DNA from: Ostreococcus lucimarinus
Lineage: Eukaryota
Length of the DNA: 64,000 nucleotides
NCBI GenBank assembly: GCA_000092065.1
Contig: CP000581.1
Reading direction: 5' to 3' (one strand)
Position numbers and translations under genes: made by a program. Positions within the stretch are counted from its first letter, which is position 1, and each line of letters starts with the position of its first letter. The notes below the pieces were generated by a model. The model ran no database searches and was not told the DNA's origin. It was given only the letters and a program-made list of their open reading frames with translations. Positions 24,313 through 44,900 of this stretch are shown here, in pieces.

Positions 24313-27300
24313 ATGGACCACACCGAGGATGCGGCAACAACAACCGTCTCCCTCGAGCGTCTCGTCAAGCTCGAGCGTGACAACGCGTTGATGTTGAGTT
24401 TCATTCTCGACGACAAACGCCTCGAGTTCAATCTACCGCCAGGAACGTCGATGGATGACGTGAACTACGGCGCGGTGAACGTCCAAGACGTAATCGAGCG
24501 ACTACGACGTAACGAGCGCGTAGACTTGAGCGGGGTGCTCACGGCGTCCGCGGCGACGAAACGAGCAGGAGGGGACGCCGCAACGCAAGAAACGAGCGCG
24601 TGCGCGCCGAAGCGGCTGGAACGGAGCAAAGCGATTTCCAACGAATCGTCGACGGCGAAAAATTCGACTAATCCGTTCGAAAACATGGTGAATGTTGGTG
24701 TGAGCGATGGTATGGGTACGGCAGTAGCAACGGTAGAGGCGAAAAAAGCAGACGAGACGACCGCGGTCTTTACGCTCGACAAAGCGCCGTCGTGCGCAAG
24801 CTCTGGCGAACTGAAGTTACCAGATTTGTATTCGGCTCTCAGCGTTACAGATTTACGCGAACTGGCGTTTGAAATTGTTTGCTCGGTACAGATGGACGAA
24901 GAGCAGTTAGAAACGGCTCGCATCGCCTTAGATATCGACCAGGAACTTGCTGACAAGATTCAAAAGCATTCTGAGAAATTCGCGCCAGCCATCAAAGAGG
25001 AGGGGATCTCAGCGCGTATCCATCTGCGCGCGATGATATCCGCGATAGAGCATTTTAATGGCCCTCTCGGCGAGGGTGAGCAGTTTTTCAAGAAGCGTTG
25101 TCGCGCAGCATGCGAGCTGTTGTGGGCGCGTCATTGCTCTGAGCAAAACGCGAGTGCGAGCAAGAAGACAGCAGCGAAGCATGATTCAGACGACGATACT
25201 CCGAATCTTACGACACAAAACGTATTGTCCGAGATAAACAGAATGTTGACGCTTCCTGAAGTCGACGCCACATGGGTCGAGTCGGCGATTGAGATGATTG
25301 AATCCGTAATCGAAAGCGAAAAGAACGGTTTTGGGTACCCTGGCATCTTTGGTATGAAGTTATACGTCGAACTTTTAAGCGCAGTCTTTGACCAGGTGGA
25401 AGATTACACTCTGGCATACGATGCAACGACCATCATTGACAGCTTTCAACCCGTGGCATGCGCTTTGGGTTTGACAGATGAAACTTCTAGAGGTGTGATG
25501 CTGGCGTTTGCCGTAGTCAGGCAAGCGATCGCAGCCATGAAAGACGTGGGAATAGACTACGACGAAGGATCACCAGCGCTGGCTCTTTTATCAAAAGCGA
25601 GAGATAGTTTGCATCGTACGGAGACGAAAATGTCGCCGGCGGTTGCTTCAGCGGTGAGTTCTATTCTGAGCTGGGGCAGATTCATGCTGCACGACTTCAT
25701 GCACACCGTCGCGCCACCAGCGACACACGATGATCGTGACATCCTGATGATCGATCCAGAGGTGTTTGACGTTATTGTTGACATCACTTACGACACAGCG
25801 CAAATGTTGGGTCTAGATGGTGTCGCTATTTTGAAGGATGCTTGTCAAAAGTCTGCGTGCGCAGAGTATGATCGCGTTCGCACCGCTGCGATGGAGGATG
25901 CGAATGTACAAGGCGGTGATGCAACGTGTACCTCCCTCCGAACGATCGCTCAAACGACAGCACACAGCGCCGATCAGTTCTCTGCGCATCTAGAACGGTA
26001 CATAGTGACCTCCCCTGGAATGAGTTCCAACGTGACGGGATGCTTTGCTGCTCAACTCGGCGACCGCTTCAAGAAAGATTTATACGCTTGGCTCGAGTCA
26101 GGACCGCAACTCAATGTTCAATCTTTAGAGACTATATGGACGGTTGGTGATCTACAAAACGCACTCGTCGCTACTGGTGGTGATGCGGTCGAGCCCATGG
26201 CGTTAGATGAGCGCACGTCTGTTCTCGTGTTCACTTGGCTGAATGTGAAAATTGACGATTTAAACACCATCGTCGATCGATGCATCTCGACCGAGAGATG
26301 GAAAGTAAACAAGGATAGCGCTCCCGTTCCGAGTGCAGTCGACTTTTTACGAGCCGTGAACGAGACGTTGGATGGTTTTTTCTCGTTGAAAATCCCTGCG
26401 CACGTGAGCGCTTTGAGAGCGCTGACTGAGGGCATCGACGCCGCTGTGCGAAAGTATTCAAGGTCTGCCGTTCAATCGCTCGGTTCGGCTGAAGAGATCG
26501 TGCCGCCAATACCTACTATGACACGGTACAAAAAGGCTATAGTCGACGATCTCCACAACAATTTCAAGTCCGAAGAACCGCCACGATTTTCTTTTGAAGA
26601 AGGATGCGTCGGTGCGTCGACGCTGCGTTTGACTTCACTGAAATTCCTCATGGATAAGATGTACTTGCTTGAGCAAGAAATCATTCCGAAGTGGAAAAGT
26701 ATGCAACGTTCTGCGTCACTGCTGACTCATCCCAACGCGGAACACGTCGTGCCGAGTGCAGATTGGTTTGAAGGCATGATGGCTGGGGCGAGACAGGCGC
26801 TTCGCCAGAGCATGAGTCAAATAGCGAACCACATGGCGTACAGCGTTATCTATCGGGATTTGAGCGGCGCAATTCTACATAACATCTATGCGCAAGGCGT
26901 TCATAGAAGTTCGCACAACATCAGCACTGAGATATTGCCGTACTTGGATGGCGTCTTGGGTTACGTAGCCGTGCGACTGGACAGTCAGACTCGAAACGCG
27001 GTTGGCTCTTTTTTGCTACAAGCCACGGTCTCGGGATGGATGCGTGTGTTGTTGAACGGTGGGCCGAGTCGTGTGTTCGTTGCAAACGATGTTGAGCTTT
27101 TAGAAGAAGAAATAGAAATTCTTCGAGACTTTTTCATCGCGGGAGGCAACGGCTTGGACGTCGCCGAAGTCACCGCTCGCATCACGCCGATGTCCGCCAT
27201 TCTGTCCATGATGAGCCTCTCCACGGACGACTTGTGCCAAAATTACACCGATTTGAGTCAAAAAGAGATGCACACGCCGGTGTCAAACGCGGACGACACC

Positions 27301-27438
27301 GATATCATAAATATCCACACCGCCGACGTCGTCTTGCGAGTGCTCTGCCACCGCGCAGAACACTCGGCGAGCAAGTGGATCAAGGCACACTTTTCCATAC
27401 GCAAAACGGAATCTGCCGGCATGTTCGGTTTCATGTAG
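24313..27438 (+). CDS. Large conserved hypothetical protein (1041 aa); possibly a plant-type Munc13-homology (MHD1/MHD2, DUF810/PATROL1-like) protein
   Basis: Long uninterrupted ORF with balanced composition. C-terminal ...DVVLRVLCHRAEHSASKWIKAHFSIRK resembles the RVLCHR..R....FLKK motif that closes plant unc-13-like MHD2 domains. The assignment is tentative. Confidence 0.4.
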   Translation: MDHTEDAATTTVSLERLVKLERDNALMLSFILDDKRLEFNLPPGTSMDDVNYGAVNVQDVIERLRRNERVDLSGVLTASAATKRAGGDAATQETSACAPKRLERSKAISNESSTAKNSTNPFENMVNVGVSDGMGTAVATVEAKKADETTAVFTLDKAPSCASSGELKLPDLYSALSVTDLRELAFEIVCSVQMDEEQLETARIALDIDQELADKIQKHSEKFAPAIKEEGISARIHLRAMISAIEHFNGPLGEGEQFFKKRCRAACELLWARHCSEQNASASKKTAAKHDSDDDTPNLTTQNVLSEINRMLTLPEVDATWVESAIEMIESVIESEKNGFGYPGIFGMKLYVELLSAVFDQVEDYTLAYDATTIIDSFQPVACALGLTDETSRGVMLAFAVVRQAIAAMKDVGIDYDEGSPALALLSKARDSLHRTETKMSPAVASAVSSILSWGRFMLHDFMHTVAPPATHDDRDILMIDPEVFDVIVDITYDTAQMLGLDGVAILKDACQKSACAEYDRVRTAAMEDANVQGGDATCTSLRTIAQTTAHSADQFSAHLERYIVTSPGMSSNVTGCFAAQLGDRFKKDLYAWLESGPQLNVQSLETIWTVGDLQNALVATGGDAVEPMALDERTSVLVFTWLNVKIDDLNTIVDRCISTERWKVNKDSAPVPSAVDFLRAVNETLDGFFSLKIPAHVSALRALTEGIDAAVRKYSRSAVQSLGSAEEIVPPIPTMTRYKKAIVDDLHNNFKSEEPPRFSFEEGCVGASTLRLTSLKFLMDKMYLLEQEIIPKWKSMQRSASLLTHPNAEHVVPSADWFEGMMAGARQALRQSMSQIANHMAYSVIYRDLSGAILHNIYAQGVHRSSHNISTEILPYLDGVLGYVAVRLDSQTRNAVGSFLLQATVSGWMRVLLNGGPSRVFVANDVELLEEEIEILRDFFIAGGNGLDVAEVTARITPMSAILSMMSLSTDDLCQNYTDLSQKEMHTPVSNADDTDIINIHTADVVLRVLCHRAEHSASKWIKAHFSIRKTESAGMFGFM

Positions 27439-27598: not shown

Positions 27599-29188
27599 AT
27601 GGAGTCGAAGCCGCTGCTCGACGTCGTCACCGTGCGTGACGACAGCGATGACGGATCGATCGATCACGCGCACGTCGCGCCGTCGCGCGCGATCCGTCGA
27701 CGGACGAAGTGCGTCGCCTTTGCGTGCGTGACCCTGCTCTTGAGTGCGTTCGTCTTCCTGATGGCGCACGACGCGGTGCGATCGGAATCGTTAGGGCGCA
27801 CGAACTCGGTGGCGTGGTTCAAAACGATGCTCTCTGGCGCTCCGTCGACGGATGTCGAAGCTGGGGGCGATGGAAACGCGAGCACAGCGCAAGGAAAGGG
27901 TGCGGCGCTCGGTCAATCGAGGGTGTTGACGCCGACGAAGGCGTTGACGAGGCAGATGGTGTTGGTAGAGGAGACGCGGAACGTGCCGATGAAGGATAGA
28001 TCGGTCGTCGAAGTAACGCGATCATACGATGGTCGCCGAGTGCGAGTGCCAACGTTTTTGGAAAAGTGGGCGACGGCGCCGTTTTGGGAAGACAACGCGT
28101 ACCTCAACGTGCACGAGAGTCCGAATTCAGAGACGGGAAAGCTTTTCGTCAGTGGACACTCGACGGATATGGGGAAATACGCCAACGTGTGGTTGGCGTC
28201 GGCCACGCATTGGGGGTTGCCGGCGAGAATTACCGGTCACGGGACGACCTGGAACAACTGGGAGGATAAGACAATGGGTTTGAGGACAGATTTAGAACAC
28301 ATGAGCGGCAATCCCGTCGTCGTCGTGAGCGACACGGGCGATGTTTTCTTCTCGTGTGGGCAAGACGAGTTGCTCAAACGATTCGAAGACAGTGGAGCGG
28401 ATATGCTTGTTAGTGGAGAGACGCAACTGTACCCGGAAGTCATGAGTTATTACGAGTTTCGCGACGACATTGACTGGATGGATAAGCACAACAATATGGG
28501 TGAAATCGGTCGAGTCGCTGAAGGCGAGCCGTTCCGCGGCGGCATTCCTGGTGACCCACGCGCATTCCGTTGGCCCAACGCCGGCTTGATGATGGGTCGC
28601 AAAGATGCACTGCTCAAGTATTTCGACTATCTCGAAGATAGTTTTGTCGAGACGGAGAATCTCTCAGGCGAGCGACGCTTTCGAAGCACGTGCAAGGCGT
28701 TTCAGCACACCGATGCACAAGCAAAGGAGGAGCGTATGAACGATGGATTTTACGACGATCAGCTTTGTTTGGCCTCGTACGCCATGTCTCGCATCGCCGA
28801 CCGCGATCCAAAATTCAAAATCGACCTCGACGGGTCGATCCTCCACTCTCCCGGAGCGATGGATATGCGACTGATGCGCCGAGATGAAAAAACTGGCCGC
28901 GTGTACAACGCCGAGACCGGGAAATCGCCATGCGCGTGGCATTTCAACACCGCCAACGCCAAAACTCATTTATCGATGGCCGTGGAAAAGTTCCCAAACT
29001 ATTTCGTCTCCGAGAACGTTGGAAACGAAATCCTGGGCCGGGAATTCGAGCCCGCGCTCGGCGCAGTCCCGACGCCGCCGCCGAAGTCCAAAAAGAAATC
29101 GTCCAAAAAGTCGAAGAAGCGATCCCACGTCGTCGTCGTCGACGACGACGACGACGACCCCTTCGACTTTGACCTCAACCTCGCGTGA
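27599..29188 (+). CDS. Type-II membrane protein with a glycosyltransferase domain resembling the N-terminal GT domain of lysyl hydroxylases (PLOD) / collagen glucosyl-galactosyltransferase
   Basis: Short cytosolic tail, one TM (CVAFACVTLLLSAFVFLMA), then PVVVVSDTGDVFFSCGQDELLKRFEDSGADMLVSGETQLYPE, compared with PLOD3 [42 protein letters not shown]. C-terminal KSKKKSSKKSKKRSHVVVVDDDDDD tail. Confidence 0.5.
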   Translation: MESKPLLDVVTVRDDSDDGSIDHAHVAPSRAIRRRTKCVAFACVTLLLSAFVFLMAHDAVRSESLGRTNSVAWFKTMLSGAPSTDVEAGGDGNASTAQGKGAALGQSRVLTPTKALTRQMVLVEETRNVPMKDRSVVEVTRSYDGRRVRVPTFLEKWATAPFWEDNAYLNVHESPNSETGKLFVSGHSTDMGKYANVWLASATHWGLPARITGHGTTWNNWEDKTMGLRTDLEHMSGNPVVVVSDTGDVFFSCGQDELLKRFEDSGADMLVSGETQLYPEVMSYYEFRDDIDWMDKHNNMGEIGRVAEGEPFRGGIPGDPRAFRWPNAGLMMGRKDALLKYFDYLEDSFVETENLSGERRFRSTCKAFQHTDAQAKEERMNDGFYDDQLCLASYAMSRIADRDPKFKIDLDGSILHSPGAMDMRLMRRDEKTGRVYNAETGKSPCAWHFNTANAKTHLSMAVEKFPNYFVSENVGNEILGREFEPALGAVPTPPPKSKKKSSKKSKKRSHVVVVDDDDDDPFDFDLNLA

Positions 29189-29391
29189 CTCGCTTAGTTT
29201 CATAGCACCATTAGTACGATTCCAAACAAAAGCAACCGCGAGCGCGCTCCACATTTTTAAACCCGAAAAGTCGGCTGTCGTCCAGATGGAATTTTTCGAA
29301 TACCGCACACCGCGCCGTCGGCCGAACGCGCTGACCGTCGCGCGTGACGCGAAGTGACGTAACATCGCAACGCACCGTGACGCATCGCAGC

Positions 29392-31299
29392 ATGACGCAG
29401 AACGACGCCGTCGACGCGCTCGTGACGGACCCACTGGGATTCATCCAGCGCGCGTTCGCTCGATCGACGACGACGACGACGACGAAGCCGACCGATGAGG
29501 ATTGGGGCGTGCGCGAGACCGCGCTTGAACTCACACGATGCGAGGAAAAGTTCAACGCGCTGCCGGAGATTAACGCGCACGGCGGGGTGGAGACGATTCA
29601 AAACAACGCCCTGGTTCGGTTTCGCGGCTTGGTGCAGGACATGTACGAGCCGGAGTACTACGTCGGGGCGTATGAACGCGCGAATGGGGACGAGAAGACG
29701 TGGGTGACGACGAAATATGCGGAATCAACGATGGATGACGTGAACGGAGGGATCGGAGAGAGCGTACTGTTCGAGAGACGCGTGCTGTATTGCGTGCCGG
29801 TGCCGGGCGAACGGCGGTGGGTGGGCGAACGCGAGCGGGCGACGATGAACGAGCGGGCGGCTAGTGAAGATGCACACGGGGAGAAGCGAGCGCGAGAGGA
29901 GGAAGCACATATGGACGTGTGTGCGGATGCGAACGTGATGACGCCGACGACGGGGACGGCGATGTTGATTAGACCGGACATTGAACGCGTGAAAAAGGCG
30001 AGCGCGGGGGATCGCACGGCGCCGGATACTCCGGAACAGATTGGTGAAGAAGAGGTCCACGAGGAATCGCTCGATCAGTTGCTAAACTTTCCTCTTATTC
30101 CTGAGTCGCGTTCGCCGTGCATTGTGAAGTTGTACGGCGAAACGGACGACTCACTGAAGTTGAACGACGTCGTAGAATTTGTCGGCATGCTGTACTATGC
30201 GCCAGAACTCGGAGTCGAGAAACGGGATCAGCAGATGGAAGACAGCCCGAACGCCGCTTTGTACGCGTCATCGGCGTTTCCCGAGGAAGATGCGTCCAAG
30301 AATCCGGTGACGAGTTTGGTTCCTAGATTCCACGCCTTGGCGTACAAGGTGACGTCCCAGAATAAATTTGTCAACTCGACGCCGGTGGAACGCTTCAGTG
30401 AAACCGAAATGGAAACTTCGCACAAGCTCTCGCCAGAGCAGGTTAATTCGGCGCGCTCTAAATTACTGGATATCCTTACTAACGTCCTCGGTGGTGATGT
30501 TTTTGCAGCGGAGTTGGTGTTGATGACGTTGATTTCGCGCGTCCACACGCGAACGGACATGCTCACATTGGGTAAGTTTTCTGTCAACCTCACCGGATGT
30601 AAATTGGATTCGTGCGAAACGGGAACGATATCTGAAATGCTGTCTACTGTGATCGGTCAGGTGTGCCCGAGCACTGCACACCTTCCCGTGACAGTACCCG
30701 CGCTTAACGCACGCTCGTGGTCGCCGAAGAAGGATTACGTGTACAACCGTCTTCGCTCTGGTCCGTTGCAACTTGCCGCGAGCACAGTTTTGCTATTGGA
30801 CGAGACCAAACTGGAGGCCGGTACTTTGACTGAGATTGGCATTCGAAACGTCGATGCGCTGAAGTCGCTGTCTACGTTGCAAGATCTCGAGTACGATTTT
30901 CAGTATCATCAGATGCGAATGCCCGTGGACGTTCCGCTCATCATCTTGTCCGACACGAAGAGCATCATTCCGGCGGACGTTATCGTACCTTTGCGACGCG
31001 TGCGTCAGCCGAAAGTCATCGAAACCACCGAAGATGAACTTGCAATCATGCGTGCCTTCGTCTCCGGAGCTCGCATGACTAAGCACACGATCTCTGAACA
31101 AACATCTGCGGACATCGAAACCGAAATCGTCGCCGCTCGCAAAAACGACAAGGCGTTGACGCAAGAAGTTTTACATTTGCTGCTCACCATGGCGCGTCTC
31201 CACGCCCTCGCCCTCGGAGGTTCAGAAGTCACGAAGCAGACGTGGATCGAAACCGTCGAAATCAATCGCCGTGTCGCCGAACGGAATCGCGTCGTTTAG
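29392..31299 (+). CDS. MCMBP: MCM-binding protein (MCMBP)
   Basis: DPLGFIQRAFA, FRGLVQDMYEPEYYVGAYE, YCVPVPGE, LGKFSVNLTGC and DYDFQYHQMRMP parallel human MCMBP HPLGIVQGFFA, FRCMIQDMFDPEFYMGVYE, YCVPVPGE, LGKFTVNLSGC and DYDFSYHQMEFP. ATG at 29392. Confidence 0.85.
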   Translation: MTQNDAVDALVTDPLGFIQRAFARSTTTTTTKPTDEDWGVRETALELTRCEEKFNALPEINAHGGVETIQNNALVRFRGLVQDMYEPEYYVGAYERANGDEKTWVTTKYAESTMDDVNGGIGESVLFERRVLYCVPVPGERRWVGERERATMNERAASEDAHGEKRAREEEAHMDVCADANVMTPTTGTAMLIRPDIERVKKASAGDRTAPDTPEQIGEEEVHEESLDQLLNFPLIPESRSPCIVKLYGETDDSLKLNDVVEFVGMLYYAPELGVEKRDQQMEDSPNAALYASSAFPEEDASKNPVTSLVPRFHALAYKVTSQNKFVNSTPVERFSETEMETSHKLSPEQVNSARSKLLDILTNVLGGDVFAAELVLMTLISRVHTRTDMLTLGKFSVNLTGCKLDSCETGTISEMLSTVIGQVCPSTAHLPVTVPALNARSWSPKKDYVYNRLRSGPLQLAASTVLLLDETKLEAGTLTEIGIRNVDALKSLSTLQDLEYDFQYHQMRMPVDVPLIILSDTKSIIPADVIVPLRRVRQPKVIETTEDELAIMRAFVSGARMTKHTISEQTSADIETEIVAARKNDKALTQEVLHLLLTMARLHALALGGSEVTKQTWIETVEINRRVAERNRVV

Positions 31300-31388
31300 C
31301 AGGTTGTCAACGTTGTCGCTTCCCCACGACCGTCATTGTCCCGCGCGTGTGCGCCCGTCTCGCGCGTGTTGAACGCACCGACGCACGC

Positions 31389-31967
31389 ATGACGTCTTCA
31401 CACCTTCGTCGCGCCATCTCGCGTCTCGCGCTCCGCGTCTCGTCCTCTATCGTCGTCGCGCGCGCGGCGACAACGCGCGACGTCTTGCACACGTCGTGTG
31501 CCACGTGGACGCCGCGACACGACCGCGTGTGGCGCTCGACGCGCCCGTTCGCGTCCGACGTCGATCGACCGGCATCGTCTGTGACGGCAGAGGAACCGAA
31601 AGACGTCGAAGACGCCTCACCATCGACGCCGAACGCGAGAAAAGATTTATACATGATGTTCACGTGCGGGCGGTGCGACGCGCGCGCTGCGAGAGGATTC
31701 AGTCGCCAAGCGTACGAAAACGGCGTCGTCATCGTGACTTGCCCGGGATGTCAAGCGAAACACGTCGTCGCCGATCGAATGGGATGGTTCGGCGAGCCGG
31801 GGAGCGTGGAGGATTTCATCGCGCAAAAGGCGGACGCGGAGGATGGCGAAGGCGGCGTCGCGCGCGGATCGATGAAACTCGTCGAAGGCGAAGATGGGAC
31901 GTTAGAGATAGATAAGAGTGAGCTCGAAGAGTGGTTGAAGAAGTTCACCGCGAGTAAAGGCGCGTAG
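31389..31967 (+). CDS. DNLZ: DNL-type zinc-finger protein (Hep1/Zim17/Tim15-like mtHsp70 escort) with a mitochondrial-type presequence
   Basis: MMFTCGRCDARAARGFSRQAYENGVVIVTCPGCQAKHVVADRMGWFG (C-x2-C...C-x2-C with DNL). N-terminal MTSSHLRRAISRLALRVSS presequence. It starts 90 nt after the MCMBP stop. Confidence 0.75.
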   Translation: MTSSHLRRAISRLALRVSSSIVVARAATTRDVLHTSCATWTPRHDRVWRSTRPFASDVDRPASSVTAEEPKDVEDASPSTPNARKDLYMMFTCGRCDARAARGFSRQAYENGVVIVTCPGCQAKHVVADRMGWFGEPGSVEDFIAQKADAEDGEGGVARGSMKLVEGEDGTLEIDKSELEEWLKKFTASKGA

Positions 31968-32057
31968 TCCGCGTTCGATTGTAATCATAGCTTTAGACGA
32001 GACAGACGCCGGAGTCCCGTCCCGGTCGCCACCTCACTTCGCCGCGGCCGAGCAACG

Positions 32058-33131
32058 ATGTCGTCCGATCCCGCGTGCTCGGTCGCTCGCATCGAGCTCG
32101 AACCTAAATGGCTCACTTTACAGCGCGACCACAACGAGCGCGTCGAGCGCGAGCGCGCAGCCGCGCGCGCCGATGTTTCGACAACCAACTTTGAGAGAAG
32201 CCACTACGCGGCGTTTTTCGACGCGCTCGCGTTCGAAGTCGCGCCGGAAGACGAGTGGACGGCGCGCGAGCGCATACTCGAAGCCTTTCGCGACGCGCAC
32301 GTCGACGGCAACGTCGAGCGCGACGCGTTCATGAGCGAACTCGGCGAACACTTGGTGTCGAAATTCGGGACAAAGGCGCTGCGACGCCGCAAGGACAACC
32401 TCAACATAACGAGCGCGCGAGTCCCGAGCGAAAAGGTGAATCTTAGGGTGAATAAAAAGCTAGCCAAGGCGAAACGGATGAAGGGGCGACAGCTCGATCC
32501 CAACAGAAGTCGGAAAATTGTCGCCTCAAAGGCGGAAGACGCGATATCGTCGAGATATATGACGGAGTTTTTGCAGCTGCACTGCGCGACGGAGTTGGTT
32601 GAGAGCCGAGTGTTCCCGGACGCAAAGGAGTTGACGGAGAGTTTCTCGGCGTTCAACGCGTGGCGTACGCATCTGAGCGATGATTTTAGTGCAGATGATC
32701 CCAACATCACGCTCGTGTCCGTGGGAGATGGTCACACGCCGCGAACCGCAGCCTTGTTTGCGTTTCGTACGCGCTGGAATTGCGTCGCGGTGGATCCGGA
32801 GATGGGCTTCGCGAAGGACTCCAAAGCGTCGTACGACATCGATCGTTTGCAGCATCACTGCGCAAAAATCGAAGAGATGCGCATCAAAACTAAACGGTGT
32901 ATCATCGTCATGGTGCACGCGCACGTGTCTTTAGCGACGACATTGCGTTCAATCCAGGCTGAAGACGGCACCGCCGCGTGCATCGCGTTGCCCTGTTGCA
33001 ACTACTATTCCGCAATAGACGCCCCGAATCGAGCGGTGCCAGAGTATGAGGACATGTCCGTCATCTCCCCACATCGCACCGTGCGAGTCTGGAAAGCGCT
33101 TCCGTGCGGTACAAGCGAGTCGCCCCAATAG
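32058..33131 (+). CDS. Hypothetical protein (357 aa) with a possible Rossmann/class-I methyltransferase-like C-terminal half
   Basis: ITLVSVGDGHTPRTAALFAF...CVAVDPEM...CIIVMVHAHV is a weak G-x-G / acidic-loop pattern. No confident family. Confidence 0.4.
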   Translation: MSSDPACSVARIELEPKWLTLQRDHNERVERERAAARADVSTTNFERSHYAAFFDALAFEVAPEDEWTARERILEAFRDAHVDGNVERDAFMSELGEHLVSKFGTKALRRRKDNLNITSARVPSEKVNLRVNKKLAKAKRMKGRQLDPNRSRKIVASKAEDAISSRYMTEFLQLHCATELVESRVFPDAKELTESFSAFNAWRTHLSDDFSADDPNITLVSVGDGHTPRTAALFAFRTRWNCVAVDPEMGFAKDSKASYDIDRLQHHCAKIEEMRIKTKRCIIVMVHAHVSLATTLRSIQAEDGTAACIALPCCNYYSAIDAPNRAVPEYEDMSVISPHRTVRVWKALPCGTSESPQ

Positions 33132-33245
33132 GAGTAGGTGTAGCCTAGCTGTAGCTGTAGCTCCGTCGCCGACAAATGTCCGACCGATCGACAGAGACCG
33201 ACGCGCGTCCGCAGCCGACACTGCGCGCGCCCACGCGACGCGAGA

Positions 33246-34799
33246 ATGAGTGACAAAGACGCGCAAAGCATCTCTCGCGGCGAGCGCTCGAATTTGCTCG
33301 CGCGCAACGCCGCGAACGGCGTCGTTGAGGGTGTTGCGAGCATTGGGTGTTGCGAGCGCAACGCCGCGAACGGCGTCGTTGAGGGTGTTGCGATCCTGGA
33401 CGAAGAGCGCGGTGAGACCGACGTGAGCGAGCGATCCCGAGCGAGAACGTCGACGTCGCGAGGATGTCTCGCGAGTGTTGCGCTGATGGCGTGTGCGGTC
33501 GGCGCGGGGATGGCGGTCGCGTCGCGCGGGGGGGTCGACGACGCGAGGACGAGCGCACGAGCTCGCGGCGGTGGGAAATCGACGCTCGGGATCAGTGGAG
33601 CGACGGGAGTGCGGACGTATATCATAGCAGATACGTCGCCCGGAGACGAGATGGAGAGATCTAGGAAAGGACGCGATTACGTGTTCAACCTGTTCAAAAC
33701 GCACGGTGGTTTGAGCGACGCCGAAGCGCGCAATACTGTGGAAATCTCGAGTGCGACGTTTCCTTCGCTTTGGCCGGATACCTTCGAGACAGCGCGAAGC
33801 GCGACGCACGATGTACTAGCGGGAGCCCTTGCTGCTTCAGAAGCGAACGTTCCAACCAGTGAGTTGCCGTATCCCATCAGACAGGTTCACGAATCGCAGC
33901 TCAATCCACAGCACCGTTGCGTCGGCGAAAAATGCGTATTCCCGCATAACCACCACCTTGGATGTCTTCTATCTCACATGTCTGTGTGGAAGAAAGCTAT
34001 TTCGCGAGGTGAGGATCGGTTTGCCGTGTGGGAGCAAGATGGTATGGGGTTCGCTTCCGTGAGCCCGCTTGACTACACAGAGCTCGGACGCCAGCTTCCT
34101 CGCGACGCAGATATGGTCTGGCTCCTAAACCCTGGAAGAAGCACCGGTCAATTCGTGAAAAAGTTCCGCTCAAGGGCGTTTGGCACGTGGGGGAAAGGTA
34201 CCCGGGGTCTCGTAAAGACAGACTGGTCGCCCGAATCGATGCACACGGCGATGAATTCAACGCACGTTTATTTGTACAAGTGGAACAAAATGTGCTCGTG
34301 GGCAGGAACGGCAGCTCTCATGTTCACCAAGCAAGGCGTCGAGAAACTTCTTCGGTACAGTACCGAACACAGTCTCGACATGATCGATGCTTTCCTCATG
34401 GGCGGATGCATTAAATCGGGAAAGACGAGTCGTCTTTCCTTGAACTGTTATCACGCGTCGAGCGTGCCAACCAAGAAAGAGCTCCTGGGTGGAATCGTGC
34501 CCGATTGGTACACTGACGAAACCGTGGGCGATCGAGCACTTCCTCAAGAGCAGGTTGACGCCATGGATCGGGATGACGCCAAGTTCAACTCGCTTGGTTG
34601 TCAGCGCGGCGGCGACGAGTTCAAGTCAAAATCTGCCTGGATTCCCACGTCCTGGGCTGGAGACGACTCCGTGGATTCGTGCGTTCCCTCCTGGAACGCC
34701 CCGGTGGACGTGTGCGATGCATCCGTGAAGTATCCACTCGATGGACACAAGTACTCACACCTCGGCAGCGCGATGTTGCGTACAAAGCCCGAGCGTTAG
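33246..34799 (+). CDS. Glycosyltransferase family 25 (COLGALT / LPS-beta-1,4-galactosyltransferase-like) with an N-terminal membrane anchor
   Basis: HHLGCLLSHMSVWKKAISRGEDRFAVWEQD...AALMFTKQGVEKLL...DMIDAFLMGG follows the GT25 pattern (GCxLSHxxxW, FEDD, AY.IS..GA.KLL....PVD). Hydrophobic segment CLASVALMACAVGAGMAVA. Confidence 0.7.
   Translation: MSDKDAQSISRGERSNLLARNAANGVVEGVASIGCCERNAANGVVEGVAILDEERGETDVSERSRARTSTSRGCLASVALMACAVGAGMAVASRGGVDDARTSARARGGGKSTLGISGATGVRTYIIADTSPGDEMERSRKGRDYVFNLFKTHGGLSDAEARNTVEISSATFPSLWPDTFETARSATHDVLAGALAASEANVPTSELPYPIRQVHESQLNPQHRCVGEKCVFPHNHHLGCLLSHMSVWKKAISRGEDRFAVWEQDGMGFASVSPLDYTELGRQLPRDADMVWLLNPGRSTGQFVKKFRSRAFGTWGKGTRGLVKTDWSPESMHTAMNSTHVYLYKWNKMCSWAGTAALMFTKQGVEKLLRYSTEHSLDMIDAFLMGGCIKSGKTSRLSLNCYHASSVPTKKELLGGIVPDWYTDETVGDRALPQEQVDAMDRDDAKFNSLGCQRGGDEFKSKSAWIPTSWAGDDSVDSCVPSWNAPVDVCDASVKYPLDGHKYSHLGSAMLRTKPER
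33303..33393 (+). repeat. Perfect 37-bp direct duplication with a 17-nt spacer inside the GT25 CDS, encoding RNAANGVVEGVA twice
   Basis: cgcaacgccgcgaacggcgtcgttgagggtgttgcga at 33303-33339 and again at 33357-33393. Confidence 0.9.
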
Positions 34800-34904
34800 C
34801 GACGCTTGTAAAGAAACAGCCACACCAACGTGTTCTTCTCGCCAGGACTCTACGACACAGTCGCATTCGCGCGCGCGCGACGCGACGCCGCGTCGTCCGT
34901 CGCG

Positions 34905-35291
34905 ATGGAAGATCTCCAGAAGAACATCGTGAAAATTCAGGACGACCTCGACCTCAAGGTGTTTCGCCCGTTGCAGAAGCGCGCGTTCGACGCTTCGTCC
35001 AAGTGCTGCGACGGGGACAAATCGAGGGAAAGCTTTCAGGCGTGTCTCGAACGCGCGGGACAGGCGACATCGCAGGCGGAGCACGCGGTGATGCAGACGC
35101 TCGGACAGTTTCAGCAACGCGTGCAGCGGTGCGTGGTGCAGTGTCAAGATAAGGCGCAATCTATCGTGGAGGCGAAAGGGGTCGAGAAGGCGCAGGCGCA
35201 GATGGAGAGTTGCGCGAACGACTGCGGCAAGTTCTACGTGAAAGAATTGAATTCAATCGGGGCGAAGTTGATGAAGGAGCACAAACCGTAG
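34905..35291 (+). CDS. FAM136A: FAM136A-like protein (DUF842)
   Basis: CCDGDKSRESFQACLERAGQATSQAEHAVMQTLGQFQQRVQRCVVQCQDKAQ...ESCANDCGKFYVKEL is close to human FAM136A [54 protein letters not shown]. ATG at 34905. Confidence 0.65.
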   Translation: MEDLQKNIVKIQDDLDLKVFRPLQKRAFDASSKCCDGDKSRESFQACLERAGQATSQAEHAVMQTLGQFQQRVQRCVVQCQDKAQSIVEAKGVEKAQAQMESCANDCGKFYVKELNSIGAKLMKEHKP

Positions 35292-35362: not shown

Positions 35363-37123
35363 TTACGACGTCTTCTTCGAGCTCTCGCTCGCACGAAAAG
35401 CTTCTCTGCGACGAAGCTGGAAGTGACGCATCTCACGCATGAAGCCTAACATTAGCGGGAAAATCGTCGGCAATATGATTGGCATCACTGATGCGACTTT
35501 GTACTCGAACGGAAAAGACTCGAGACCGCCGAGAGAGAATGGATCGAAGAACGCTCTCTCCGCCGCCGCGTGCGCCGAGCGCGCGCTCGCGCCGGCTTCG
35601 TCGTACCGTGCGTTCTGCGCCAAATCAATCGCTCGTTCGAGTGCTTCAACCGACTCCAGTATTCTTTCAGCGATAGCGTCCGGAACAGCGATGTCCGCTA
35701 TGCTCGAGATGACCTCGTCAAGCGATTTCAAAGTAGAAATCGTCGATTGCGAATCGGCAACCAATCGCGAATGCACAAGCGCATCGACCTCCCACGTCGC
35801 GAAACCGGTGTGCTTAGGCGGTAAAACCTTTGCTCCGAATTTTTGCAGAAATTCGCCCGCGCCTAAATGAATCCTAAGCTGGCGCACGAAAGCGTTCACG
35901 ACGTTTACAACTTCGTCGTTTCGCAGTCTGATTTCGTTTTCGCCGCGAGCCACCGCACATCCTGGAGGATTGACGACCACGAGCCCACCCCAACCTTCGA
36001 CGATAAACGCATTTGTCGCCGTTAATTCATGATTATCATCCAACACATACAGTGGACACTCGGTTTGAGGCGGTACGTACACCACAAAGTGCAACGGTTT
36101 CCCGTCGATGGGCGTGTACGTCACGGACGTGTCGATCGGCCAGTCTGAATCTATGAAGAATGGTGTCTGCTTCGAGTCAACCACGTATCCCCTGTGTTTG
36201 TCCGACCACATCGGTCGCACCCGACTGCGTGCGTGTCGCAACACTTGTGCCTCGATCCGCACCTCTAATACGCGACTCAACGCTTCCGGGAGCGCGCCGA
36301 GAAACGGTTGCTCGACGTCGCGTTGAAAATCCCATGAAAACGCGTACCCAGGCGTCGGCTCCGCGTTCACCAGACTAAACGATGCGAGCAAGATACCGTC
36401 CGATGTCGTGAGAAACGGTGACGCGCTGGGTGTCGTTTCATCGGCAGGTGCGAATAGCGCGCGAAGTCGTTCCTCCAGTTCATCCGCGAGGAGACGCTCG
36501 TCGTCGAATCGCATCCATGCCGCTCGGTGCGTCCCGACGACAAATTTCCCACGCTCTTCATCGTTTTCACCGCGACGATCGCGCACGACGACGAAGTCGT
36601 ACACCGTCGCGTTCTCGTCCGCGAGCGCGCGCGTCCGCGCGTCGACGTCTTCGTCCGACGCCGCCGCGAGCGCGTCCATCCATCCCTCGCCTCGCCTCGG
36701 CGTCGCCGCCTCGATCGTCACCCAACGCGCGACGTCCTCTAATCCTCGCCTTCGCGCCACCTCTCGCACGATGTTTTCTCCTCCCTCCGCGTCGATCCAC
36801 ACTCGCGCTCGCGCCCGTCGCGTCGACGTCGCTCGCGCCGCGCGCGTCGCCGCGTCCTCGTGATCCACCCTCGCCGTCCTCGCTCTCGTCGGCGCCGTCA
36901 CCGCGCGCGCCGCCATCGCGAGCGCGACGCCGAGCGTCGTCAGCGCGTGCGCGAGCATCGCCAACCGTTTCCCGCGCGGCGTCGCGCCTCCCTTTGCGAA
37001 TCTCGCGCGCTCGGCGTCGTCTCTCGGCGCGTGCGCGCGCGCGCGACGCGCCTCCCTCGCCGCGCGCGCGACGACGACGACGACGACGACGACGAGCGCC
37101 GCGCGATCGCTCGACGCCGACAT
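35363..37123 (-). CDS. PIGS: GPI transamidase component PIG-S
   Basis: Aligns with human PIGS over most of its length, for example NAFIVEGWGGLVVVN vs NAFHSPRWGGIMVYN and AFFDPFSLGGLESFPFEYKVASVMPIILP vs [28 protein letters not shown]. There are N- and C-terminal TM helices. Start chosen at ATG 37123-37121 (MSASSD...GKRLAMLAHALTTLG, compared with human ARGKRAALFFAAV). Confidence 0.8.
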   Translation of the reverse strand: MSASSDRAALVVVVVVVVARAAREARRARAHAPRDDAERARFAKGGATPRGKRLAMLAHALTTLGVALAMAARAVTAPTRARTARVDHEDAATRAARATSTRRARARVWIDAEGGENIVREVARRRGLEDVARWVTIEAATPRRGEGWMDALAAASDEDVDARTRALADENATVYDFVVVRDRRGENDEERGKFVVGTHRAAWMRFDDERLLADELEERLRALFAPADETTPSASPFLTTSDGILLASFSLVNAEPTPGYAFSWDFQRDVEQPFLGALPEALSRVLEVRIEAQVLRHARSRVRPMWSDKHRGYVVDSKQTPFFIDSDWPIDTSVTYTPIDGKPLHFVVYVPPQTECPLYVLDDNHELTATNAFIVEGWGGLVVVNPPGCAVARGENEIRLRNDEVVNVVNAFVRQLRIHLGAGEFLQKFGAKVLPPKHTGFATWEVDALVHSRLVADSQSTISTLKSLDEVISSIADIAVPDAIAERILESVEALERAIDLAQNARYDEAGASARSAHAAAERAFFDPFSLGGLESFPFEYKVASVMPIILPTIFPLMLGFMREMRHFQLRRREAFRASESSKKTS

Positions 37124-37507
37124 CGCGCGCGTCGCGCGCGCGCGCCGCTCTGACGCCGGACGACGCACGTCGACGAGGACGCGAGACGGCGACGCGCGCG
37201 CACGCGAACGATGGACGAGGACGACGCGACGACGCGGGAAGAGGAAGACGAGACGACGAGGCGCGCCGACGAGGCGACGCGCGAGACGCGCTGGGGGGGA
37301 GCGTTCGTGTGCTTCGTGGGGGCGAAACAACGAGGGAGCGCGTCGTCGTCGTCGCGCGGCGGGGCGGCGACGGGAGGACGGTGTCGACGACGGTCGGCGC
37401 TCGTGGCGCTGGAGGAACTCGGGTGCGAGATGAAGCGAGATTTCGGCGCGGCTGGGTTCTTGGCGGCGGCGCGGGAGGCGAACGTGCACGAGTGCGAGGA
37501 CAGCGGG
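37124..37507. promoter_or_regulatory. Divergent promoter between PIGS (-) and a DUF3700 gene (+). It contains a (GAC)n tract at 37070-37095 just inside the PIGS N-terminus.
   Basis: Head-to-head arrangement; very GC-rich. Confidence 0.35.
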
Positions 37508-40336: not shown

Positions 40337-41529
40337 CTATTGCGCTTCGCGCTGCTTTCGGCGAGTGTCCAAAACGGCGAGAATGCGGCGCAATGTGATA
40401 CCCTCGCCCGCTCCGTAGCCGTCGACGACGGAGTCCACGCCTGGGAACTCGCCGCCGCGCTGGAGCTGGTTGCGCACCATGACGGAAAAACCACCGGCTG
40501 ACGTGGCTTCGGAACACGTCGCCTGGGATCCACCGATAAAGATGACGTTCTCGGAAGAAAACCCGCGCTGGATGGCGATTTCAGATATCACTTCGGCGGT
40601 GAGCATCGAGCGACGACTCGTGGAGAACATCCCAGCATCGATGATGACGTCCGAGTTGAAGTTTTGGCGCTGCAAATTGCCGCCGATTTCCGGGGCGAGC
40701 AAATCGCCCTTGGTCTTCTTCATCATTCGCGCCGCCTCCGAGCGCGCCTGGGAAGCGATACCTTTGGTGGCGTTGAAACTTTCCGGTGCACCTGTGATGG
40801 AAATCGCCGCCGAGCGAAGTGGACCCAACCCGTGAAGCGCGGCTTCCAACACTCGATCCTCGCTCGTGGACGCCGTCTCGGAGATGATGAGCACTTGTAG
40901 CTTGTCGTTTTCGCGAATACAATCATCCACGAATCGCTCAACCCCGCTTCGAAGCTTGAGCGCGTGCTCGTCAATCATCAACTGGAACTGTTTCTCTTTC
41001 TCGTCGATCAAGTCGCGAAGGAATACGTCCCTCATCCGCGCTTCGTCCTCCCTCGACATCCCCGTCGGCGCGCCCGCGTCGACGACGCCCGCCGCGTCCG
41101 CGAGCGGCACCATATCCCCGAGTCTCTTTATCGCCTTCAAGTACTCGTCGTTATCGATCGCCCTTTTCGCCGTCGCGTTCAACTCGCTCGGGTACCCGTA
41201 AAAGTGAAAGTACCGCTCCAGCATCCCGTACGCGCTCCCGCCGCCGCTTCGCAACAGCGACGCGTACTCCCTGTGGTCCCAGTTCGCGCTCCGCACCCCT
41301 TTCGCCGCGAACGCGCGATTAAACGCGACTCGGTGCCCGTCCCCGTGCACGTCCACGAGCGCGCCGTCGCACTCAATCATCACCAGCGTCGTCTTCCCGT
41401 GCGCGCCGTCCACGACCTCCGTCGACGCGCGCGTCGCGCGCGCGCCCCGTCGACGCGCATTCAAACCACCGCGCCGCGCGAATCGCGTCGCGCGCGCGCC
41501 CGCGCGTCTCGCCGTCGTCATCGGCGTCA

Positions 41530-41536
<7 letters not shown>
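40337..41536 (-). CDS. CBBY: CbbY-like HAD-superfamily phosphatase (plastid xylulose-1,5-bisphosphate phosphatase homolog) with a transit-peptide-like N-terminus
   Basis: TTLVMIECDGALVDVHGDGHRVAFNRAF...LRSGGGSAYGMLERYFHFYGYP...VLIISETASTSE...ENVIFIGGSQATCSEATSAGGFSVMV parallels Arabidopsis CbbY LIFDCDGVILESENLHRQAYNDAF...LVGGGKPKMRWYFKENGWP...LAVCSAATKSS...KDCLVVEDSVIGLQAATKAGMSCVI. Start at ATG 41536-41534 (MTMTPMTTARRAG...). Confidence 0.75.

Positions 41537-41570
<34 letters not shown>
41527..41570. repeat. (GTC)n on the + strand, i.e. (GAC)n on the - strand, overlapping and just upstream of the CbbY start codon
   Basis: gtcatcgtcatc(gtc)11. In the CbbY frame it reads as Thr/Met codons (TTTTTTTTTTTMTMT). 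Confidence 0.9.
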
Positions 41571-41574
<4 letters not shown>

Positions 41575-41974
41575 ACGCGGCGCGCGCGACGTCCGCGAAC
41601 GAACGCACGCACCGACGAGTGCGGGCGCGCGTTCGACGTTCGAAATCGAACGCGCGCCGCGTCCGTCCGTCGGTTTTGCGCCACGTGGCGTGTTTTTTCC
41701 ATCCGACGCGCCGCCCGCCAGGCGACGACGACGACGACGGATGGACGACGGATGACCGACGACCGACGACCGACGCTACTCGACCGCGCGACGGGACCGC
41801 GCGAGGACCCGAGCCGAGTCGCGCGCGGTGTCGGTGACCCGGCGCGCGACCCGGCGCGGCGTCGGTGACCGCGGCGTCGGCGCGCGAACGCGCGCGAACG
41901 CGCCTATCCATCGGCGCTCGCCAACGTTCGGGCGCGAGAAAGTTTGAACGCGACGGCGCGCGGAGGCGCGCGGG

Positions 41975-44900
41975 ATGGAGTACGCGGAGTACAGACCCGA
42001 TAGTAAAAACGTCGCGCTGAAGAATCGCAGCGCGTATCGATTGGTCGGACACACGTGCGCGACGTACGCGCAGTACGTGGTGTACGTCGCCGAGGGCGTG
42101 GCGAAGAATACGTTCAACGCGCTGCGAGGGATAAAAGACTGGCGGACGGATGATGAGAATGGGGAAAAGAATGACTTGACGCCGCTGAGCGCGGGTAAGG
42201 CTAAGGACTTTTTCTACATCGGGAACATGTACGGAAACATCGAGGATACGTTTAATCGACCGATTTATTCGTCGCCGGAGGATTTTATCGACGTCGCGAT
42301 TCGGGCGCCGGAACACAACCGCGGGTACTTTGCGCGCTTGCAAGCGACGCCAGAGTCGAGAAAGTGCTTGAATTTGGGGAGTTATAATTATCTCGGGTTC
42401 GGTGGCGTCAACGAGCACTGCACACCGGTTGTGGAGAAATCTTTGAGCGAGTATCCAGTGACGAGCGGATCGCCCGCGGCGGAGCTCGGACGAGACAAAA
42501 ACTTGCGCGAGGTGGAAGATCTCGTGGCCAGATTCGTAGGCAAAGAGAGCGCGTGCGTGGTCGGTATGGGCTTTGCGACGAATAGTACGGTGATTCCGGC
42601 GCTTTGCTCGAAGGGCGACTTGATCATTTCTGATGCCTTAAATCACGCATCGATCGTTGAAGGCGCGCGCTTGAGCGGGGCAAAGATTCGCCCGTTTAAG
42701 CACCAGTGCGTGGGTGACTTGGAACTCATCTTACAAGACGCGGTTTTGGGTGGATACAATTACAACAAGATTGTCGTCATCGTGGAAGGTATTTATTCCA
42801 TGGAAGGTGAAGTTTGCAACTTGAAGCCGATCGTGGAGGTGGCGAAAATGTACGGCGCGCACGTGTACTTGGACGAGGCACACTCCATCGGCGCCGTCGG
42901 TCCGACGGGGCGAGGCGTGTGTGAAGAGCTTGGCGTTGATACCAAGGACATCACCGTCATGATGGGTACTTTTACCAAGTCATTCGGTGCCGCCGGTGGA
43001 TACGTGGCGGGTGATAAAGAGGTTGTGGAAGCCGTGAAGCGCTTTTCGCTCGGGTACACCGAGGCGGTTTCCATGGCGCCGGCGGTGTGCGCACAAGTCC
43101 TCTCATCTTTGCGTTTGATTTCCGGCGAAGACGGCACAGATATCGGAAAGAAAAAGCTTGATGCGCTCCGAGCAAACTCGGAATTTTTTCGTGATGGCTT
43201 AGTAGCGCTTGGCTTGGAAGTTCTCGGCCATCATCCGTCACCAATCATGCCCGTCATGCTCTATCAACCATACAAGATTGGCGATTTCTCTCGTCTTGCT
43301 TTCAATCGTGGTTTAGCCGTGGTCGTCGTCGGTTCTCCCGCCACGCCGATAACGCTGCCGCGTGTGCGCTTCTGCATTTCTGCTGCGCACAAGAGGGCCG
43401 ATCTGGAGAATGCATTGCACGTGATTTCTGACATTGCCGACGAGCTTTGCCTCAAGTTTAAGAAGTATCCCGCGAACCGATTTTTTCCGGGTTCCATCGA
43501 GGAGCTCGAAAAGCGAGAGCACAAAGAGAGTAAGAAACGAGTAGAGTACGCGTTAAAAAACAGAGAAAAGGCTTTGGAGTCTGCGTCTCGACTCCACTGG
43601 GCCCCCGTTTCCGTGGGCAGCAAGGTAAACGAAGAGATGAAACTCGAAGATGCCAAGGTTGAGCAGTTCGCCAAGTCCGAGATGAAGGATTCGTACGACA
43701 TGGTACTTAGCTCGCAAGATTTCTTAGATTTGACCCTCGACGAAACCATGCGATCTCAGTGCGCTGAAACTATTCATCGCTATGGTCTCGGATCGTGCTC
43801 ACCTCGTGGTTTTTATGGCACATTCCGTCCGCACATGGATTTGGAAGCCAAGATTGCGAAATTTCTCGGCGTGGGTGAAGCTGTGCTTTACTCTTTCGGC
43901 GTTTGCACTGCGTCCAGTGTCATTCAAGCTTTAGCGTCAAAAAGTGATGTGGCTGTGGTCGATCGAGGCGTTGGACCGAGTATCATCGCTGGTTTACGTT
44001 TGGCGAAGCTCGAAATTAGATGGTACAATCACGCCGATCCTGCTGATGCGGCGCGTGTTTTTGCGCAAATTGAAACCGAAGATGGTTCCACGTCTGCGAG
44101 GCTCACCCGACCTGTCAGACGTCGATGGTTGATTACTGAAGCATGTTTTGGCTCCACCGGTCGATGTGCGCCTCTCCGTGAACTTGTAGCTTTGAAGGAT
44201 CATCACCATGCACGAATGATTCTCGATGAGTCGTTCTCCTTTGGCGCCATGGGTGAAAGTGGTCGTGGTCTGATTGAACACGTTGGACTACCCAGCAGCT
44301 CTGTTGATGTCATTTGTGCTTCGTTGGAGAACGCGTGCGCATCTGTGGGTGGTTTTGTGGCCGGAGATACGGGAGTCGTGGCTTACCAACGCTTGATGGG
44401 AAGTGGTTACGTCTTCTCAGCGTCCTTACCGCCCTACCTCGCGACGGCTTCTTTACACGCCATCAGCCGCATCGAAGCTGAACCGGCCATGGTTGAAAAG
44501 CTTCATGACGCGGCGCGACGTACTCGCAGCGCACTCGTCAGTGGAGACATTCCCGGTATGACTACTGATGCAGATGCCGACTCGCCAGTCATCCCCGTCA
44601 AGCTCTCGGCCGGCGTTGGGAGCGGGGACGAGAACATGCTTCTGCATCGCATCGCTGCTCGTATGCGAAGTAAAGGATTTGGTGTGTGCGTGGCTCGAGT
44701 CAGTCCTGTCATTTTACCGTCTCACCGCCCCCCGCCGTCCCTTCGTCTATATGCGCACGCCAGTCACACGGCGGACAAGATTGACAAGATGCTCACAGTG
44801 CTTCGAGATGCTGCGTTGGATATCCTCCCGCAGCACGCTTTAGCGTCGCCATTACCGCAAAAGCGACCGTCGCTCGATCATCAAGTTCACGTTTCGCCCA

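Follow-up and report, generated by a model that had tools for sequence, protein, structure and literature searches.

Two predicted glycosyltransferase genes of Ostreococcus lucimarinus, probably brought together by relocation of one of them

Results

Gene content around ORF1 and ORF5

This analysis concerns two open reading frames (ORFs), ORF1 and ORF5, in a 64-kb stretch of the genome of Ostreococcus lucimarinus CCE9901, called the window below (the longest contig encoding the exact ORF1 protein measures 1,152,508 bp). According to an earlier note on this DNA, the two encode glycosyltransferases (GTs) of the kinds that act on collagen, and their proximity was taken to suggest a small functional neighbourhood or a shared, possibly horizontal, origin. 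Both ORFs were found exactly where the note had placed them, in a compact run of genes that keeps to one strand up to PIG-S (aa, amino acids):

24313-27438, +, PATROL1-like gene
27599-29188, +, ORF1, 529 aa, predicted type II membrane protein whose GT-A domain is of the LH3/PLOD type (Pfam GT_PLOD; XP_001415494.1 / ABO93786.1 / UniProt A4RR26)
29392-31299, +, MCMBP (Pfam MCM_bind, 1e-153)
31389-31967, +, DNL zinc-finger protein (Pfam zf-DNL, 2e-24)
32058-33131, +, conserved hypothetical protein, 357 aa
33246-34799, +, ORF5, 517 aa, predicted type II membrane protein whose GT-A domain is remotely GT25-like
34830-35291, +, DUF842
35363-37168, -, PIG-S

The three unrelated genes that separate ORF1 from ORF5 (29392-33131, +) had been correctly recognised as MCMBP, a DNL zinc-finger gene and one conserved hypothetical gene, and their order is kept in all relatives examined.

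The GT domain of ORF1

The likeness of ORF1 to the GT domain of the lysyl hydroxylase LH3 (PLOD3) had been read from the string VSDTGDVFF...ELLKRFEDSGADMLVSGETQLYPE, which lies at aa 243-280 and which HMMER aligns with VDSYDVIL... of LH3. This reading holds. The match of ORF1 to Pfam GT_PLOD (PF25342) scores 36.3 bits, where 27 are required, and spans positions 16-114 of the 246 in the profile; the exact sequence already carries the UniProt name 'PLOD1-3-like GT domain-containing protein'. Pairwise, the similarity to LH3 is weak (phmmer E 0.05). When the family is represented by an alignment of ten orthologues that are 44-65% identical (A1), LH3 is the sole match of the resulting profile in the PDB (E 9e-4), and a profile search of 1.84 billion representative proteins gives 186 matches at E <= 1e-3, the distant ones among them carrying Pfam GT_PLOD. 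Aligning A1 by hhalign with eight GT_PLOD domains, one true PLOD-type protein included, gives a probability of 99.8% (E 1.2e-27) over 214 columns; two gaps in this alignment, at about aa 281-320 and 345-380, are interpreted as insertions. The features of ORF1 that follow from these comparisons and from its hydropathy (TM, transmembrane segment) are:

27710-27766, +, putative signal-anchor/TM, aa 38-56 (Kyte-Doolittle 19-mer mean 2.57; RRRTK before it)
28133-28966, +, GT_PLOD catalytic domain as predicted by hhalign of A1 against GT_PLOD domains, aa 179-456
28331-28342, +, DxxD metal motif D245-T-G-D248, aligned with LH3 D112-S-Y-D115, invariant in A1
28754-28762, +, D386-D387-Q388, aligned with LH3 D190-D191-Q192, invariant in A1
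28940-28942, +, H448, aligned with LH3 H253, the third Mn2+ ligand (PCAWHFN versus PIVVHGN), invariant in A1

Structural work on LH3 (PMC6082870) describes D112, D115 and H253 as binding Mn2+, W75 and Y114 as sandwiching the uracil, W145 as a gate, and D190 and D191 as essential. The three Mn2+ ligands correspond to D245, D248 and H448 of ORF1 and are invariant in the ten orthologues; W75 corresponds to W218, which is conserved in at least 90% of the family, and the conserved E141 to E274, which is invariant there. The gating W145 is replaced by Y278, with a Trp at this position in 3 of the 10 orthologues, and the second uracil-stacking residue, Y114, by G247, the Tyr not being conserved. Since in the mimivirus enzyme R699 the Trp is critical for activity and the Tyr is not (PMC9546862), the loss of the Tyr114 equivalent may not matter. 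On these alignments we take the domain to be a genuine LH3/PLOD-type GT domain in which the predicted catalytic residues are kept.

Like the GT domain of LH3/PLOD3 (PDB 6FXK, 6WFV), ORF1 combines a predicted non-canonical Mn2+ site, made of DxxD and a distal His, with a loop Trp at the place of the one that stacks on uracil in LH3, and it shares with that domain an E...W/Y-P-E loop, an NxG motif and an Asp-Asp-Gln-Leu motif, all invariant in the algal family. It differs from LH3 in being a stand-alone GT on a type II anchor: accessory (AC) and lysyl-hydroxylase domains were not detected with Pfam, whereas a true PLOD-type protein taken for comparison (P0207) joins GT_PLOD to OGFOD2-like and 2OG-FeII_Oxy domains. 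The change of Tyr114 to Gly247, the two presumed insertions, the weak pairwise similarity and the lack of a known collagen context set it further apart. A parallel in architecture is R699 itself (PDB 9DYT), a collagen galactosylhydroxylysyl glucosyltransferase that is likewise a stand-alone LH3-type GT with DxxD and Trp, although the sequence similarity to ORF1 is marginal (phmmer E 0.85) and R699 has been described together with viral collagen-like proteins (PMC9546862), whereas ORF1 is a membrane-anchored product of an algal nuclear gene. By analogy with both enzymes, and judged by its conserved catalytic residues, ORF1 would be a Mn2+-dependent, retaining UDP-hexose transferase that uses the DxxD...His site and the uracil-stacking Trp.

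The C-terminus of the O. lucimarinus protein (29087-29188) consists of a Lys/Ser-rich stretch followed by VVVVDDDDDDPFDFDLNLA. This tail is absent from the other nine aligned orthologues, three of which have a shorter Lys/Ala-rich extension. On one JGI metagenome contig (L007 4354-5943) ORF1 is broken into gene calls of 379 and 70 aa; because MCM6 and PIG-S are also split there, assembly indel errors are a likelier cause than a null allele.

The GT25-like domain of ORF5

For ORF5 the note had pointed to a GT25 signature of two parts, GCxLSHxxxW and FEDD. The first is present as GCLLSHMSVW, within the context HLGCLLSH; the second is not, the actual residues being VWEQDG. Pfam GT25 (PF01755) accordingly covers only aa 237-265 and stays below threshold (20.2 bits, cut-off 24). 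Among the 23 homologues in the ORF5 family, 22 match the same Pfam model at E <= 0.1, the best at 1.9e-5; the family profile finds in the PDB only COLGALT1 (E 1e-3) and a bacterial GT25 enzyme; and when the family is compared with GT25 domains by hhalign, the probability is 84% (E 7.7e-6) for an alignment of 29 columns. In an AlphaFold2 (AF2) model the core of the protein is usable, with mean predicted local distance difference test (pLDDT) values of about 76-93 per 10-residue block at aa 121-260 and 67-84 at aa 261-310. A Foldseek search of the PDB with this model returned 14 matches at E <= 0.001, and all 14 are GT25 enzymes (COLGALT1 and a bacterial beta-1,4-galactosyltransferase). Sequence motif and predicted fold thus support GT25/COLGALT-type enzymes as the closest relatives of ORF5. 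As the Pfam score is sub-threshold, yet GT25 is the sole family recovered, we call the protein GT25-like and do not present it as a certified member.

33465-33521, +, putative signal-anchor/TM, aa 74-92 (Kyte-Doolittle 19-mer mean 2.11; RSRARTSTSRG before it)
33603-34475, +, predicted GT-A core, about aa 120-410
33954-34040, +, candidate GT25 signature, aa 237-265, HLGCLLSHMSVWKKAISRGEDRFAVWEQD (Pfam GT25 stretch; PDB alignments to COLGALT1; hhalign)

In COLGALT1, C412 and the Mn2+ chelators E435 and D437 are essential, and D436 binds ribose (PMC12003778). The alignment places C412 on C240 of ORF5 and the two Mn2+ ligands on E263 and D265, the E-x-D motif lying at the end of strand 258-263 in the AF2 model. 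Within the family G239, S243, H244 and E263 are invariant, and C240 and D265 are each conserved in at least 90% of sequences, one homologue from a more distant species (P0029) being without the final Asp. The position of D436 is taken by Gln in ORF5 and by Ser in most homologues (WESDG).

What ORF5 shares with the GT2 domain of COLGALT1/GLT25D1 (CAZy GT25; PDB 9EVJ, 8ZGC) is the pattern LGCxLSHxxxWK...[FW]E-x-D with the counterparts of Cys412, Glu435 and Asp437. Against this stand a single GT domain instead of GT1 plus GT2, an N-terminal membrane anchor, the replacement of the middle Asp of EDD and of Gly408 (His236 in ORF5), and an alignment that ends at E-x-D, before the essential Trp495 and Asp522 of COLGALT1, no similarity being detectable by sequence outside the 29-residue motif. 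Compared with the single-domain GT25 enzymes, namely the bacterial beta-1,4-galactosyltransferase (PDB 8XC8, 8XKD) and mimivirus R655, ORF5 is 10-14% identical and about twice as long; it carries a tail, an anchor, a stem and a Cys-rich C-terminal extension (aa 410-517). If it works as COLGALT1 and the bacterial GT25 enzymes do, ORF5, strongly diverged and with its E-x-D metal site placed after a GCxLSH helix, would be an inverting beta-hexosyltransferase.

The exact ORF5 protein is represented, among the cluster members listed, only by JGI and ENA metagenome gene calls, with no NCBI or UniProt accession from O. lucimarinus; the gene may be unannotated or differently modelled in the reference genome. 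In a 2013 survey of CAZy, GT25 has Micromonas but not Ostreococcus sequences (PMC3797821). A profile-based word search for further relatives of ORF5 added one protein, P0033, so the alignment stays shallow. P0033 (L016 434-3691; its 90% cluster includes O. tauri XP_022838215.1) is 1,085 aa long and contains two tandem ORF5-like catalytic domains, the first at aa 250-635 and the second at aa 672-1056, both with about 47% identity to ORF5; either the domain was duplicated within the gene, or the gene caller fused two genes.

Membrane anchors and tails

ORF1 had been described as a type II membrane protein, and Kyte-Doolittle profiles agree with this for both proteins: each has one hydrophobic N-terminal segment behind a basic, Arg-rich tail, which fits a type II topology. 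The tails themselves are built alike in the two families, with one ExxxL[LI] motif (mostly ER..L[LI]) followed by an acidic patch, an Arg-rich stretch and the TM:

27602-27619, +, ORF1 tail motif E2-S-K-P-L6-L7, ExxxL[LI] (10/10 family members; 32-42 aa lie between the motif and the TM that follows)
33282-33299, +, ORF5 tail motif E13-R-S-N-L17-L18, ExxxL[LI] (23/23 family members)
33299-33393, +, tandem duplication in the ORF5 tail, two 41-nt copies, 54 nt from start to start, encoding RNAANGVVEGVA twice

In the ORF5 family E13, R14, L17 and L18 are invariant. The motif lies 32-47 aa from the TM, except in the ORF5 allele of the window, where the duplication extends this distance to 61. The duplication is a length polymorphism, since 17 codons are missing here from a near-identical strain (L021) and the relative P0013 is without the repeat. 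From its conservation in sequence, the ExxxL[LI] tail may serve to sort the type II glycosyltransferases of these algae.

Synteny

ORF1 is a conserved syntenic gene, found at this position in at least four Mamiellales lineages. In O. tauri (ORF1 orthologue 52% identical) and in two other relatives (64% and 47%) the gene order is PATROL1–GT_PLOD–MCMBP–DNL–hyp–DUF842–PIG-S, where hyp is the conserved hypothetical gene, and ORF5 is absent. Searching by tblastn for ORF5 remnants in the hyp-DUF842 gaps and the whole loci of about 21 kb in these three relatives returned none. ORF5 is present at the ORF1 locus in a close relative (ORF1 orthologue 94% identical, flanking proteins 94-98%) and on metagenomic contigs that encode an identical ORF5 protein. 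Elsewhere its homologues occupy at least three other genomic contexts, none of them shown to hold a GT_PLOD gene: the O. tauri homologue P0033 adjoins RRM–NIF–Dus, P0029 has the same context, and another two homologues are found in a different context each. Because the RRM–NIF–Dus context is common to P0033 and P0029, we infer that it is the ancestral position, and within the O. lucimarinus lineage ORF5 would have left that neighbourhood for the intergenic space between hyp and DUF842. Transposon or target-site signatures were sought on both flanks of ORF5, and only short GC-rich chance repeats were found there, with no terminal repeats or traces of mobile elements.

The separation of only 4 kb between ORF1 and ORF5 is thus probably explained by relocation of ORF5, and their adjacency is no conserved functional cluster. 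The proposal of a small functional neighbourhood finds no support here. The conserved linkage that would be expected of a collagen-type hydroxylysine pathway (lysyl hydroxylase, GT25 galactosyltransferase and LH3-type glucosyltransferase) is likewise not seen, the adjacency being limited to O. lucimarinus and its close relative. As the two genes appear to have become neighbours only recently, through the move of one of them, their closeness says little about a shared function or origin.

Sequence divergence of ORF5

ORF5 differs from its neighbours in its rate of change. We compared it with its counterparts in the close relative (L011 7594-9108) and in the near-identical strain (L021 164-1666). 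Its protein is 76% identical to that of the close relative, against the 94-98% of the flanking proteins. The synonymous rate (dS) is alike for all five genes compared, at 0.10-0.17, while the nonsynonymous rate (dN) is 0.120 for ORF5 versus 0.010-0.026 for the other genes; the ratio dN/dS is 0.73 versus 0.10-0.21, and two 60-codon windows of ORF5 exceed 1. In the near-identical strain no difference was found in 1,706 aligned neighbouring codons, and ORF5 has 5 nonsynonymous changes, 1 synonymous change and the 17-codon indel, which are small counts. Clusters at 90% identity hold 363 member sequences for ORF5 versus 142 for ORF1.

ORF5 is intact in every variant seen and retains its family-invariant residues, so it is no pseudogene, and these rates point to either diversifying selection or relaxed constraint since the move. 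One could speculate that ORF5 is a rapidly diversifying determinant of the cell-surface glycan, for instance under pressure from prasinoviruses, or that it was relaxed after moving, its position beside ORF1 being incidental in either case. The elevated dN/dS at similar dS, the confinement of all substitutions between near-identical strains to this one gene and the larger cluster all fit such an account, and glycosyltransferases have been implicated in the virus resistance of Ostreococcus (PMC5082852). Yet positive selection is not proved by a dN/dS that stays below 1 overall, and in O. tauri the GTs whose expression differs in resistant lines are confined to chromosomes 19 and 2 (PMC5082852). 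The O. tauri homologue of ORF5 may share a 1.096-Mb record (CAID01000001.2) with the orthologue of ORF1. Virus resistance is thus a conceivable link, and we hold the account as a whole to be possible but tentative, and somewhat doubtful. As a local hotspot of amino-acid change among nearly identical genomes, ORF5 is in any case a candidate gene for surface-glycan variability.

Origin of the two genes

That one or both genes came from a giant virus or a bacterium, possibly together, is an idea with some initial appeal, for both GT25 and GT_PLOD are well represented in giant viruses (e.g. mimivirus R699, R655 and L230) and comparison with other Ostreococcus genomes shows ORF5 as an insertion. 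The data speak clearly against it. The synteny of ORF1 across Mamiellales has been given above, and ORF5 has homologues in nuclear-gene contexts in several other lineages, with identities (47% in O. tauri, 38-42% and 25% in others) that track the species pattern. A foreign origin of ORF5 was also considered on grounds of composition and rejected, its GC content (0.579), its GC content at third codon positions (GC3, 0.647) and its codon usage all being native, within the range of its neighbours; nor do its flanks resemble those of a transposon. The best matches of the ORF5 model among predicted viral structures (BFVD) are mostly giant-virus proteins annotated as GT25, at 12-14% identity, and include no prasinovirus protein. 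A scan of IMG/VR viral contigs with both family alignments found no relatives, a weak negative since the scan relies on short peptide patterns. Beyond the GT-A fold, moreover, no homology links the two catalytic domains (cross hhalign probability < 1%), so the shared origin suggested by the note is no better supported than the horizontal one. We regard acquisition of either gene from a virus or bacterium as very improbable.

Proximity and possible coupling

With 57 GTs annotated in the genome, or about 0.75% of all genes (PMC3797821), we calculate that about 1.7 GT-GT pairs would be expected by chance within four gene positions, so that two GT genes lying close together are nothing out of the ordinary as such. 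For this specific pair the chance of lying within four genes of each other is about 0.1% genome-wide, a figure that applies to a pair chosen after being seen. This low chance could be taken to mean that ORF5 and ORF1 are a functional pair, in which ORF5 adds a first hexose and ORF1 a second to the same non-collagen acceptor, as an algal counterpart of Glc-Gal-hydroxylysine, and that the move of ORF5 reflects their coupling. Natural fusions of GT25 and GT_PLOD domains do occur among the distant, metagenomic relatives of ORF1 (P0183, P0221), in two cases with a C-terminal 2OG-Fe(II) oxygenase in addition (P0217, P0241), and in humans LH3 is found in a complex with COLGALT1 (PDB 8zgc; PMC11897130), so that the two families do cooperate elsewhere. 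Both O. lucimarinus and O. tauri have both families, and the tail design common to them suggests a common sorting route.

Sequential action of ORF5 and ORF1 thus stays conceivable, given the fusions and the shared tail motif, but several observations make such a pair unlikely. The genes are unlinked in O. tauri and the two other relatives, and ORF5 homologues sit in three other contexts, none shown with GT_PLOD; in O. lucimarinus itself the two are parted by three unrelated same-strand genes, and they evolve at unequal rates (dN/dS 0.73 for ORF5 versus 0.21 for ORF1). No gene for a hydroxylase, a collagen-like protein or a sugar-nucleotide enzyme was found among the scanned ORFs of the 64-kb window. 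Furthermore, both Pfam families include enzymes or fusions unrelated to hydroxylysine: GT_PLOD domains are also fused to HtrL/YibB, ricin lectin, GT47 and GT6 domains, and from a GT25-type fold one cannot conclude that hydroxylysine is the acceptor, as the bacterial beta-1,4-galactosyltransferase belongs to GT25. Membership of GT25 or GT_PLOD therefore does not imply hydroxylysine or hydroxyproline as the acceptor.

Other features of the window

For the hypothetical gene at 32058-33131, searches of Pfam, NCBIfam and the PDB sequences gave no match. It is syntenic in all relatives examined, where its product has 351-369 aa. The remaining large ORFs of the window that were scanned are unrelated housekeeping genes, among them COPB', CPSF100, CCDC22, a queuosine-salvage protein, ACOX, an aminotransferase and thiamine pyrophosphokinase, and MCM6 was recognised through gene calls on matching contigs. 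Two large ORFs have no Pfam family at E <= 1e-5, one at 1-2619 (+, 872 aa, open at the window start) and one at 40337-42418 (-, 693 aa).

Discussion

Taken together, the results make it likely that ORF1 and ORF5 are independent, vertically inherited genes of the Mamiellales, each encoding a single-pass type II GT-A glycosyltransferase with a lumenal catalytic domain, that ORF5 has relocated, and that its adjacency to ORF1 is incidental to function. The resemblance to two collagen-glycosylating families is real, strong for ORF1 and remote for ORF5, and the two proteins add new, divergent members to GT-A families already known, ORF1 carrying such an annotation before.

Four points weigh against this interpretation. 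The direction of the ORF5 move depends on two outgroup contexts. An AF2 model of ORF1, made from the 10-sequence alignment, reached a mean pLDDT of 43.5 and is unfit for a fold search, which leaves sequence profiles as the basis for its fold. For ORF5 the sequence similarity to GT25 is confined to 29 residues (HLGCLLSHMSVW...WEQD) and lies under the Pfam threshold. Finally, the chance of about 0.1% that ORF5 would land within four genes of ORF1 leaves room for some selective reason behind the move.

No collagen is known from Mamiellales algae. That stand-alone LH3-type and GT25-type enzymes are conserved in such a collagen-free picoalga, and that the two domains are fused in metagenomic proteins, suggests that the pair may be an ancient two-step module that is not specific to collagen. 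A bolder proposal would have these algae run a two-step O-glycosylation module homologous to the Gal-then-Glc hydroxylysine pathway of animals and giant viruses, the shared ExxxL[LI] tail sorting both enzymes together, the first-step enzyme ORF5 evolving fast as the maker of a virus-selected surface glycan, and the two genes having been joined secondarily in O. lucimarinus; we consider this combination distinctly unlikely.

With independent genes and a relocated ORF5 as the preferred reading, the finding is mostly a clarification: the gene proximity that had drawn attention is a recent rearrangement. For the family, ORF5 extends GT25-like enzymes to Ostreococcus.

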